Assembly: GCA_050257045.1 (NCBI GenBank) | Contig: JBLMWD010000074.1 | Location: 6,442-70,441 of the forward strand | Direction of reading: 5' to 3' | DNA length: 64,000 nt | DNA from: Bacteroidota bacterium | GTDB taxonomy: Bacteria > Eisenbacteria > RBG-16-71-46 > SZUA-252 | Shown here: piece by piece, positions 61,384 through 64,000 of the stretch | Layout of the letters: the number at the start of each line of letters is the position of its first letter | Numbering within the stretch: the first letter of the stretch is position 1 | Position numbers and translations under genes: made by a program | The notes under the pieces: generated by a model | Databases searched by the model: none | Told to the model about the DNA's origin: nothing | The model's input: the letters and a program-made list of their open reading frames with translations, nothing else

Positions 61384-62151
61384 TCAGCGGAGCTGGTACT
61401 CCACCGTGGCGACGACGCGCACGATCTTGTACATCTGCGTCGCCTCGGGAACCGACGGGCCCTGGTCGGAGCCGGCCGCGTCCCGCGGGAGGATCACGAA
61501 GACGCCCTGGTTCGCGCGGTGGATCCCGCCGAGGTTGCTCTTCGAGTCCTTGGCGAACTGCTCGGCCGACTTGCGCGCCTCCGCGGTCGCCTCGGCGATC
61601 ATCGCGGGCTTCAGGTCGTTCAACTTCCGGAAGACGTAGCTGGGCCCGCCCGGGCCCCATTCCGGGCCTGACGAGAGGACGACGCCCGCCTCCACCAGCT
61701 GACCCACCTTCTGGCTCGTCGCCTGGACGCGGTCGGGATTGCCCGAGCGCACGTTCACCGCCTGCTGGAGGATGAAGCGCGTTCCACCGGGACGCTGCTC
61801 GGTGCGGAAGGGATTGGCAAGGATGTCGGTCACCTTGAGCGTCTGCGGCTCGATCTCCGTCGAATCGATCCCGTTCGCCCGGAGGAAGGCGACCACGCGC
61901 GCCACGTTCTGGCTCATGCGCGTCTGCGCGGCGGCGAGGTCGTTGTCGGTGACCGCGAGCTGGATCGGCCAGAGCGCGAGATCGGCCTTCACCTCGCGCT
62001 CGGCAACCCCCTTCACCGTGACGAAGCGGTCCGCGGTGCGGACGTTCTGGACCCCCATCCCCACGAACCAGCCGGCCAGCGCGACGCCGAGCGCGAGGAC
62101 GATCCCGACGAGTCCCCGGCCGCGCGGCGCGTCCACCCTTTCGGCCGCCAT
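61384..62151 (-). CDS. SIMPL (DUF541) domain protein
   Basis: N-terminal TM; VTVKGVAEREVKADLA, LKPAMIAEAT..AR..A.QFA.DS, ANQGVFVI, K.VRVV.TV.Y. Confidence 0.88.
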   Translation of the reverse strand: MAAERVDAPRGRGLVGIVLALGVALAGWFVGMGVQNVRTADRFVTVKGVAEREVKADLALWPIQLAVTDNDLAAAQTRMSQNVARVVAFLRANGIDSTEIEPQTLKVTDILANPFRTEQRPGGTRFILQQAVNVRSGNPDRVQATSQKVGQLVEAGVVLSSGPEWGPGGPSYVFRKLNDLKPAMIAEATAEARKSAEQFAKDSKSNLGGIHRANQGVFVILPRDAAGSDQGPSVPEATQMYKIVRVVATVEYQLR

Positions 62152-62280
62152 GCGTTCCCTCCCCCTGGATCCGGCGATCCCACGACGGCGGCAGTATAGA
62201 CGAAATCGGCGGGCCGCCACGTGGACGGCCCGCCGAGGAAATGGGAGCGTGACGGAGCCCCTCCGCCCCGCGCACCCGAT

Positions 62281-62553
62281 CTACTTCACGATCGTCGTGC
62301 TGTCGCCGCCCCCTCTTCGGGTCAAGGCAATGATGAGAATGATCAGGACGACGGCTCCGACCAGTGCCCAGAGCCTCCAGTCCGATACGAACTCCGAGGT
62401 GGTCGTCGTGGTCACGGCGGAGTGGCTGGTCGCCGAACCGGACGTGACCGACGAAGAATCCTGCGCCCGAACCGCCGGTGCGAGCAGCATCGCCGACGCC
62501 GTCGTCAGGCCGATGGAGATGCGGCGGCACAGTGTGAGGCCGAAGCGTTTCAT
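62281..62553 (-). CDS. Secreted/membrane miniprotein (90 aa): signal peptide, Ser/Thr linker, C-terminal TM; paralogue 2
   Basis: GAGGAGG RBS; AxA cleavage site; SDWRLWALVGAVVLIILIIALTRR...STTIVK. Confidence 0.75.
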   Translation of the reverse strand: MKRFGLTLCRRISIGLTTASAMLLAPAVRAQDSSSVTSGSATSHSAVTTTTTSEFVSDWRLWALVGAVVLIILIIALTRRGGGDSTTIVK

Positions 62554-62619
62554 GGGTGCCTCCTCAGTCGGGCGACATGGGAGCCCTGCAAGGCCCCACG
62601 CGCCGCCCTCGATCGGGGG

Positions 62620-62901
62620 TTACTTGACCACGGTGGTACTGCTTCCGCCCCTGCCTCGAGTCAATGCGATGATGAGAACCACGAGGACCACGACGCCGAC
62701 CAGCGCCCAGATCCTCCAGTCGGAGGTCCAGGAAGCCGCCGAGGTCGTCTCGGTCGTGGTGGACGTAACACTCCCGCCGCCACCCACCTCGCCTCCGCCG
62801 CCACCCTGCTGTGCCCACGCCGGAACCGCCGTAAGGGCGAGCAAGGACACCATGAAGCCGGTCTGCCAGAACCGACGAAGTGCCAGACCGAAGCGTTCCA
62901 T
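62620..62901 (-). CDS. Secreted/membrane miniprotein (93 aa): signal peptide, Gly/Ser/Thr linker, C-terminal TM; paralogue 1
   Basis: AAAGGAG RBS; AWA cleavage site; SDWRIWALVGVVVLVVLIIALTRGR...STTVVK. Confidence 0.75.
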   Translation of the reverse strand: MERFGLALRRFWQTGFMVSLLALTAVPAWAQQGGGGGEVGGGGSVTSTTTETTSAASWTSDWRIWALVGVVVLVVLIIALTRGRGGSSTTVVK

Positions 62902-62928
62902 ATCGGACTCCTTTCTATGTAATTCACA

Positions 62929-62954
62929 GGAGGGGAGCCTCGCGGCTCCCCTCC
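62929..62954 (-). terminator. GC-rich hairpin downstream of the OmpA-family gene
   Basis: Perfect 11-bp stem ggaggggagcc/ggctcccctcc with a 4-nt loop; T-tract weak. Confidence 0.55.
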
Positions 62955-62991
62955 CGCCTGCCGTGTTCGGAATGAAGCAAAGACAGTGCCG

Positions 62992-63999
62992 CTATTCGCC
63001 CTTCTGCAGCAGCCGCCGGCGTTCCCTCTCCTTCTTGAGTTCTTCGGTGTTGAGGACCTTGAACTCGACGCGGCGGTTCTTCGCCATCCCTTCCACGGAC
63101 TTGTTGGAGGCCACCGGCCTGTTCTCGCCGTAGCCCACCGCCGTGTACTGCTCCTTGTGGATCTGCGGGAAGTTCTGGATCAGGTAGTCCAGGACCGCCT
63201 GCGCGCGCTTCTGCGACAGATCCTTGTTGTACGCGTTCGACCCGCGCGCGTCGGTGTGGCCGCCGACCTCGATCCGCAGCTGCGGCCACTGGATGAGGAT
63301 CTTGCCGATCTCGTCGAGCACCGGGCGCGACTCGGGGAGGATGTCCCACTTCGCGGTCTCGAAGTGGATCTCACGCGTCGTGATGGTCCCCTTGTCGAGC
63401 AGCTGGGTCTCCTTCTCCGTGAGCTCGATCGGGCAGCCGTCCTTGTCGACCTTCACGTTCGGCGGCGTGTTCGGGCAGAGATCCTGGCTGTCCGAAACAC
63501 CGTCGTTGTCCGAGTCGACCGAGCAGCCGCGCGCGTCGACCTGCGTGTTCGGAGGCGTGTTCGGGCACTGGTCGATGCCGTCGGGAACGCCGTCGTTGTC
63601 GGAGTCCTTCGGGCAGCCGCGCTCGTCCACGACCGCACCCTGCGGCGTGTTCGGACACTGGTCGACGCCGTCCGGAACGCCATCGCCGTCCGAGTCCTTG
63701 GGGCAACCGCGCGCGTCGACCTGCGTGTTCGGCGGCGTGTTCGGGCACTGGTCGATGCCGTCGGGAACGCCGTCGTTGTCGGAATCGGTCGTGCAGCCGC
63801 GCGCGTCCACGGTGGCGCCCTTCGGCGTGTTCGGGCACTGGTCGATGCCGTCGGGCACGCCGTCGCCGTCGGAATCGAGCGGGCAGCCGTGCTCGTCCAC
63901 CCGCGCGCCGCGCGGCGTGTTCGGGCACTGGTCGTTCTTGTCGGGCACGCCGTCCCTGTCGGTGTCCTTACCCGTGATCGAGCCGCCCAGCGAGAGCTG
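62992..63999 (-). CDS. OmpA-family protein with thrombospondin type-3-like repeats (5' end outside window)
   Basis: C-terminal OmpA-like domain (GGHTDARGS..YN..LSQKRA, GYGENRP, NRRVEF) preceded by D-x-D-x-DGVPD..DQCP repeats. Confidence 0.92.
   Translation of the reverse strand, partial: QLSLGGSITGKDTDRDGVPDKNDQCPNTPRGARVDEHGCPLDSDGDGVPDGIDQCPNTPKGATVDARGCTTDSDNDGVPDGIDQCPNTPPNTQVDARGCPKDSDGDGVPDGVDQCPNTPQGAVVDERGCPKDSDNDGVPDGIDQCPNTPPNTQVDARGCSVDSDNDGVSDSQDLCPNTPPNVKVDKDGCPIELTEKETQLLDKGTITTREIHFETAKWDILPESRPVLDEIGKILIQWPQLRIEVGGHTDARGSNAYNKDLSQKRAQAVLDYLIQNFPQIHKEQYTAVGYGENRPVASNKSVEGMAKNRRVEFKVLNTEELKKERERRRLLQKGE
63431..63966 (-). repeat. Six tandem ~90-nt (30-aa) TSP3-like calcium-binding repeats
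   Basis: Unit DSDxDGVPDGxDQCPNTPxxxxVDxxGC; several are near-identical at DNA level. Confidence 0.9.
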
Positions 64000-64000
64000 G

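Follow-up and report, generated by a model that had tools for sequence, protein, structure and literature searches.

A tandem pair of small predicted type I membrane proteins in an Eisenbacteria genome belongs to an unnamed conserved family

The analyzed window is a stretch of 64,000 nucleotides from a metagenome-assembled genome of Candidatus Eisenbacteria, and near its end two tandem genes, A and B, encode miniproteins of 93 and 90 residues. We propose that A and B are resident small type I proteins of the inner membrane (N-out/C-in) that would bind a partner through their single helix and are not cargo tags; on the sequence and modeling data presented here, this reading has a probability of about 0.55. 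By profile comparison, they are members of an unnamed conserved family of Eisenbacteria and Chitinophagaceae, and the class to which this family belongs, small single-pass membrane proteins, is already familiar. Small membrane proteins are under-studied, and this family has neither a name nor a Pfam or NCBIfam model. It pairs a specific conserved core (A-Q site, W..W.W, invariant Gly, A-L-x-R-G, and TT[VI]xK) with a low-complexity stalk. Annotation, in which spurious JGI names (MlaD, PulF, and FtsW) now occur, would benefit from a definition of the family, and the members in cultivable Chitinophagaceae make the family a tractable target. Ruling out a sorting signal averts a false lead. For the biology of the window, the significance is modest, as the genes appear to be a lineage-specific accessory pair of the envelope.

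Gene A (62620..62901, stop codon TAA) and gene B (62281..62553) are both located on the minus strand, at the position given in an earlier note made from the DNA alone, which had described two tandem ORFs of 90–93 residues with strong ribosome-binding sites. The Shine–Dalgarno sequence of A is AAAGGAG (62908..62914, minus strand), 6 bases 5' of the ATG, and that of B is GAGGAGG (62559..62565, minus strand), 5 bases 5' of the ATG; both were read directly from the DNA, and the site of A is kept at all orthologous loci. The proposed paralogy was confirmed by BLASTP (49% identity over the full length, E = 5e-23). The divergence between A and B sits in the linker, and the C-terminal blocks SDWR[IL]WALVG..VL..LIIALTR and STT[VI]VK are nearly identical. 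The genes were also thought to be easily missed by annotation, which is not the case: NCBI and JGI already call both, as "hypothetical protein." In a collection of 5.8 billion proteins, 22 homologues of A and 39 of B were found, all 83–103 residues long and all derived from metagenomes or metagenome-assembled genomes.

Long ORFs overlap in other frames in this region, as is usual for high-GC DNA, and A and B might on that ground be spurious ORFs of GC-rich DNA and not genes. The selection analysis, for which DNA from eight loci with both genes and six loci with one was used, speaks against this explanation. Differences between orthologues at codon positions 1, 2, and 3 numbered 506, 350, and 1001 for A and 544, 331, and 876 for B, and median dN/dS values were 0.24 (A), 0.29 (B), and 0.32 (single-copy genes). 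The excess of third-position changes together with the dN/dS values of 0.24–0.29 indicates that both reading frames are under purifying selection. Moreover, the start, stop, length, and Shine–Dalgarno site are kept across genera, and homologues occur in a low-GC phylum. The spurious-ORF explanation is effectively refuted. The spacing between the two genes varies, from 66 nt in the window to 11 nt at one orthologous locus (L001) and an overlap in another genome (G009).

The architecture of both proteins can be read along the minus strand. In A, a predicted signal peptide (residues 1–30, 62812–62901, predicted cleavage between AWA and QQ) is followed by a Gly/Ser/Thr linker (residues 31–57, 62731–62811), the motif W58-T-S-D-W-R-I-W with a membrane helix extending to T81 (62659–62730), and a predicted cytoplasmic tail, RGRGGSSTTVVK (62623–62658). 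In B, the predicted signal peptide (residues 1–30, 62464–62553, predicted cleavage between VRA and QD) precedes a Ser/Thr linker, an EFVSDWRLW motif with the membrane helix, and the tail RRGGGDSTTIVK. The signal peptides consist of a basic n-region, a hydrophobic core of 12–14 residues, Pro, and A-x-A, after which comes Gln. The stalk is a disordered Ser/Thr/Gly-rich segment of about 27 residues; it leads into the juxtamembrane aromatic motif W/F-x-S-D-W-R-x-W, after which come a membrane helix of roughly 20 residues and a conserved C-terminal TT[VI]VK tail. The stalk is acidic, and R-G-R and a final Lys lie beyond the helix. AlphaFold2, run with a 57-sequence alignment, gave a model of only helix and coil (mean pLDDT 64) with one helix at residues 4–31 (the signal peptide), low-confidence disorder at residues 32–55, a second, confident helix at residues 62–82 (pLDDT of about 89), and a coil tail. 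By sequence and model, A and B thus have the features of Sec/SPI-exported type I membrane proteins: n-, h-, and c-regions ending in A-x-A, a second helix of about 20 residues, and a positively charged C-terminal side.

The same features are conserved in the alignment of 324 family members. The predicted A-Q cleavage site, formed by A27 (302 members) and Q28 (323 members), comprises the most conserved profile positions, and W55 (309), G58 (315), A68 (293), L69 (292), T81 (260), and K84 (249) are conserved as well; R71 is followed by Gly, forming an R-G stop-transfer element. The family stalk has a median length of 26 residues and contains 31% Thr and 19% Ser. In most lineages the aromatic motif takes the form W-Y-x-Q-P-W-x-W, and W/F-x-S-D-W-R-x-W is the form of the window's lineage. 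The tail after R-G comprises 9–12 residues in A and B and can reach about 25 in relatives, with TT[VI]xK at its end or inside it. With an acidic stalk and a basic tail, the proteins are predicted by the positive-inside rule to have the N-terminus outside and the C-terminus in the cytoplasm. Sec export, a signal peptidase site, and a single helix with N-out/C-in charge asymmetry are well supported by these sequence features, as is the view that the whole small protein is retained as the functional product.

The extent of the family was evaluated by a profile search of 1.84 billion representative proteins (E ≤ 1e-3), which matched 190 relatives. The best 150 of these 190 are all 65–156 residues long and match nearly end to end; in the longest of the listed relatives, the start was called too far upstream, ahead of an M-K signal peptide that lies inside the annotated protein. 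The relatives share an A-Q signal peptide, a Ser/Thr stalk, a Trp-rich motif, a helix with the invariant Gly, R-G, and often TT[VI]xK. Many matches are low-GC proteins of the same architecture, and a search seeded with them gave at least 446 clusters at 90% identity. The family comprises at least 190 clusters at 50% identity in two phyla. Named sources of the low-GC members are few and all belong to Chitinophagaceae; the proteins themselves are annotated as "hypothetical protein" or bear plainly spurious JGI names, among which phosphate-transport permease also occurs. NCBI organism labels are likewise inconsistent: two contigs of the window's own genus (L025, accession DATGVG010000089.1, and P0031) are labeled "Candidatus Limnocylindrales bacterium" and "Candidatus Binatia bacterium."

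Searches with A, B, and ten diverse relatives gave nothing above threshold in Pfam, NCBIfam, PHROGs, PADLOC, or the sequences of the PDB. The best sub-threshold matches were to the Pfam families PF09534 (Trp_oprn_chp) and PF21827 (New_glue), with scores of 18.7 bits for B (cut-off 29.6) and at best 27.5 bits for a Chitinophagaceae member (cut-off 31). Like A and B, these two families have a low-complexity Ser/Thr stretch beside a membrane helix; membership was rejected, as the scores are below the cut-offs and the matches are compositional. In the published literature, no paper describing such a family was found. The earlier note had suggested an undescribed family of tiny surface glycopeptides. 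With 190 relatives and no match to a curated family, the "undescribed" part of that suggestion stands. The "surface" part probably does not: in a diderm, a protein that combines a Sec signal with a hydrophobic helix stays in the inner membrane, which makes a surface location unlikely.

Across 41 relatives, a close profile detected the A–B pair in five of the nine other genomes of the window's genus and a single copy in three sister genera, and no match of this profile falls outside the window's GTDB family (f1). With a broader profile, a member was detected in 39 of 201 Eisenbacteria genomes. This patchy distribution, both in the genus and in the phylum, indicates that the gene is dispensable. 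Members from two other Eisenbacteria families (f9 and f15) have the variant WYGQWWVWAVG...ALTNRGGRxx and lack the TT[VI]xK tail. In the phylogenetic tree, A and B form separate clades (support values of 90/88 and 98/96, respectively) with congruent internal topologies, which indicates a single duplication at the base of the genus, after which both copies were retained; the single-copy genes of the sister genera group with B. Further multiplication is seen on a Chitinophagaceae contig (L030:4914-6192), where three paralogues are packed into 1.3 kb; one of the three is encoded on the opposite strand and lacks a tail of the TT[VI]xK type.

At their C-terminal ends, A and B share with Sec-exported PEP-CTERM, GlyGly-CTERM, and LPXTG proteins the succession of a short motif, a hydrophobic helix, and basic residues, and the earlier note had raised the possibility of a new CTERM-like sorting signal with a co-occurring peptidase. 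This reading was rejected. A 40-column HMM of the C-terminal module, searched for larger carriers among all six-frame ORFs of the 3.4-Mb genome, detected only A (89 bits) and B (81 bits), the next match being below 10 bits. Likewise, no cargo-bearing protein is found among the best 150 of the 190 library matches, none of which exceeds 156 residues, and the module therefore does not recur as the same tag on several larger proteins. The NCBIfam CTERM models match neither A nor B, and the Pfam PEP-CTERM model (PF07589) matches three other ORFs of the genome. An exosortase is encoded in 10 of the 12 family-f1 genomes with a miniprotein and in 9 of the 13 without, a similar share, and no peptidase gene is present in any of the conserved neighborhoods examined. 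Known sorting signals stop right after the basic cluster, and PEP-CTERM, GlyGly-CTERM, and LPXTG signals have no equivalent of the TT[VI]xK tail; the miniproteins do not end a few residues past their basic residues but continue into this conserved tail. They also differ in the motif itself (W-x-S-D-W-R-x-W or W-Y-x-Q-P-W-x-W instead of PEP, GG, or LPXTG), in the absence of a cargo domain among the listed members, and in copy number: one or two per genome, with no co-occurring or neighboring sortase, as opposed to the client set of PEP-CTERM-type systems. The sorting-related loci of this genome (C31:27924-28676, C15:9542-9901, C112:19813-19881, C27:70211-70276, and C126:129948-130016) comprise a single exosortase gene (233 bits), a single sortase gene (112 bits), and three ORFs with a canonical PEP-CTERM signal at the end.

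Two further explanations concern the fate of the polypeptide. A and B might be substrates, though without cargo, of an intramembrane or sorting protease resembling rhomboids, rhombosortases, or exosortases, in which case the motif–helix–basic layout would be the recognition signal and the cut would free or transfer a Thr-rich peptide of about 30 residues. The resemblance to tripartite sorting signals and the presence of an exosortase and a sortase in the genome are consistent with this idea, and so is the V-G-A or V-G-G stretch of small residues in the helix's outer half, a feature of rhomboid substrates. It is nevertheless improbable in view of the evidence above: the lack of cargo carriers in the genome and among the 150 best library matches, the model matches that fall on other proteins, the similar exosortase frequencies with and without a miniprotein, the tail of up to about 25 residues past the basic cluster, and the neighborhoods devoid of peptidase genes. 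The other explanation is that the N-terminal segment stays uncleaved, giving a hairpin of two helices whose termini are both cytoplasmic and whose Thr-rich loop lies outside. The AlphaFold2 model, in which residues 4–31 form one long helix, agrees with such a hairpin. The short hydrophobic core of 12–14 residues, the Pro and A-x-A that follow it, the basic n-region, and the conservation of A27 and Q28 (302 and 323 of the 324 members), as expected of a signal peptidase I site, all favor cleavage, and we regard an uncleaved hairpin as no more probable than the protease substrate.

The remaining explanation assigns A and B to a particular neighbor. Directly upstream, a gene encoding an outer-membrane β-barrel, TSP3 repeats, and an OmpA domain occupies 62992..64000 on the minus strand with its C-terminal 335 residues (TSP_3, 3e-27; OmpA, 2.4e-19); it runs beyond the end of the window, with a frame of 607 codons from stop to stop on the contig. 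According to this explanation, the miniprotein would be a dedicated partner of the OmpA-TSP3 protein: the genes would form one module, with the stalk in contact with the periplasmic TSP3/OmpA part, which it would tether or whose binding of peptidoglycan or calcium it would regulate. The OmpA-TSP3 gene lies upstream on the same strand and ends about 90 nt away at 13 of 14 independent family-f1 loci from four genera, where SIMPL, DoxX, and other neighbors vary, and the hairpin between the two genes is conserved with covariation. One family-f1 locus (L017), however, lacks the OmpA-TSP3 gene, and none of the distant relatives examined (f9, f15, and Chitinophagaceae loci) has it as a neighbor. Conversely, the other OmpA-TSP3 paralogues in the window's genome are followed by neither a miniprotein nor any small membrane protein, and close homologues in two other genomes (G003 and G011) are not followed by a miniprotein. 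A dedicated partnership is therefore unlikely, although it ranks above the two explanations in the preceding paragraph. The family as a whole is not strictly dependent on OmpA-TSP3, given the relatives without that neighbor.

The conserved neighbor differs by lineage, and thus no single partner can be named. At three Chitinophagaceae loci other than the one with three paralogues, an AraC regulator is located upstream, and at two of these a TonB-type outer-membrane gene lies downstream on the opposite strand; the f9 and f15 loci have mixed neighbors. A membrane-bound AraC partner was considered and rejected, as the two AraC sequences read fully have no obvious hydrophobic segment. The SIMPL/DUF541 gene downstream of B (61384..62220, minus strand; SIMPL, 2.2e-22) was rejected as a partner because its position varies or the gene is lost: in the window's genus (g1) it comes after B, in g2 and g4 it precedes OmpA, and L021 and L025 lack it. 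The earlier note's idea of a regulator of neighboring envelope proteins can thus be narrowed to a possible role with OmpA-TSP3 in the window's lineage only, as judged from gene order. A general pairing of OmpA-like proteins with small anchored proteins was also rejected, on the grounds of the unpaired paralogues here and an unrelated follower in G011. In that genome, which belongs to a sister genus, the gene after an OmpA-TSP3 homologue with 75% identity (L038:966-1454, minus strand) encodes an unrelated protein of about 130 residues; it has a signal peptide and a helical domain and ends in a hydrophobic anchor (…TVTTIIIILLLIIILAN).

The A–B pair is bounded by two RNA elements. Between the OmpA-TSP3 stop codon and gene A (62926..62957, minus strand), a 14-bp GC-rich hairpin, GCGGGAGGGGAGCC-GCGA-GGCTCCCCTCCTGT, has no U-tract; it is kept in four genera, 7 of its 14 pairs show compensatory changes over 10 loci, and no Rfam match was found for it. 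Its 5' arm is Shine–Dalgarno-like (GGGAGGGGAG) and its 3' arm is CCUCC-like. The hairpin is a candidate for a partial terminator, a processing site, or an mRNA-stabilizing element between the OmpA and miniprotein cistrons. An intrinsic terminator predicted 3' of gene B (62196..62236, minus strand) is strong and consists of a 13-bp stem (11 GC pairs), in a hairpin at 62236–62206, followed by TTTCGTCTAT, and as read from its sequence it closes the A–B transcription unit before the SIMPL gene. In most orthologous loci, a GC-rich hairpin, usually with a T-run, follows B or the single-copy gene. With the hairpin before A and the terminator after B, the pair forms a compact expression unit behind OmpA-TSP3, and this arrangement suggests that the job of the miniproteins in the window's lineage is probably envelope-related. 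The long GTG frame of SIMPL shares its first codons with the terminator, and SIMPL orthologues align only from residue 32; the true start is therefore probably the ATG at 62151. Past the terminator, several loci share a conserved CTATACT or TATAAT-like box, a possible promoter for the following gene.

Here, we propose how a resident small type I inner-membrane protein of this family might work. After cleavage by signal peptidase I, a mature peptide of about 60 residues would stay in the inner membrane. The hydrated Thr-rich stalk, possibly O-glycosylated, would face the periplasm as a brush, and the 12-residue β-prone tail would face the cytoplasm, where TT[VI]xK, with its alternating polar and β-branched residues, could serve as a short docking strand. 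By inspection, W55, G58, A68/L69, and R71 appear to lie on roughly one face of the helix, which would be a specific surface for helix–helix packing. Such a surface would lead to oligomers (A with B in this genus) or to accessory subunits of a larger membrane or envelope protein, and the miniproteins would then act like other bacterial small membrane proteins. MgrB, AcrZ, and KdpF are bacterial small regulatory membrane proteins, mostly without a cleavable signal peptide or a Thr-rich stalk. The miniproteins resemble them in having fewer than 100 residues, a single membrane helix, and an expected action by helix packing with a larger protein, but they possess a signal peptide and a Thr-rich stalk and show no sequence similarity. 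In eukaryotic glycophorins, a signal peptide precedes a stalk rich in Ser and Thr outside the cytoplasm, and one helix with conserved small residues connects this stalk to a short tail in the cytoplasm. The stalk–helix–tail layout of these glycophorin-type mini-mucins resembles that of the miniproteins in architecture only, as the latter are bacterial, predicted to face the periplasm, and not homologous.

A bolder and quite unlikely extension, less so than the protease or hairpin explanations alone but more so than the OmpA-TSP3 partnership, is that A and B are founding members of a widespread group of periplasm-facing mini-mucins of Bacteroidota and Eisenbacteria, two phyla that we take to be both placed in the FCB group. 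Their stalk would be O-glycosylated and capped by pyroglutamate, the helix would anchor it in the inner membrane, and the helix face and TT[VI]xK tail would dock a defined partner, perhaps linking the inner membrane, in the window's lineage, to an OmpA-TSP3 tether of the outer membrane; or else they would be cargo-less substrates of an intramembrane protease that frees a small glycopeptide. Polyprenol-dependent glycosyltransferases are encoded 4–6 kb from the miniproteins at two loci (GT87 in L001, 2416-3870; PMT_2 in L020, 193-1500); a nearby glycosyltransferase was rejected as the modifier, as GT87/PMT_2 is not conserved in L021.

The O-glycosylation sequon of Bacteroidota is D-[ST]-[AILVMT], located in a non-cytoplasmic segment (PMC12871550). 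It is absent in its canonical form from A (QQG) and B (QDSS, with D-S-S). Among 250 parsed family members, the stalks of 107 contain the sequon, compared with 68 expected from shuffled stalks; it is located at mature position +2 in 98 of the 250, and Q-D-S follows the predicted cleavage site in 133 of the 250. In Bacteroidetes, a Q-rule applies to mature Sec/SPI substrates, most of which have Gln at position +1 (PMC5837995, PMC10653852). The miniproteins resemble such Q-rule and sequon-bearing Sec substrates of Bacteroidota in having Gln after the predicted cleavage site, and many members come from Chitinophagaceae. Unlike the Q-rule organisms, the Eisenbacterium of the window has no general Q-rule, and A and B lack the canonical sequon. 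A crude prediction of signal peptides in its genome gave 179, of which about 15% have Gln at +1 after A-x-A, an enrichment that is far from a Q-rule. The N-terminal Gln is thus a feature of the family, in which 323 of 324 members have it, and not of the organism. Its invariance in both phyla may hint at an origin of the family in Bacteroidota or at a specific role of the N-terminal Gln.
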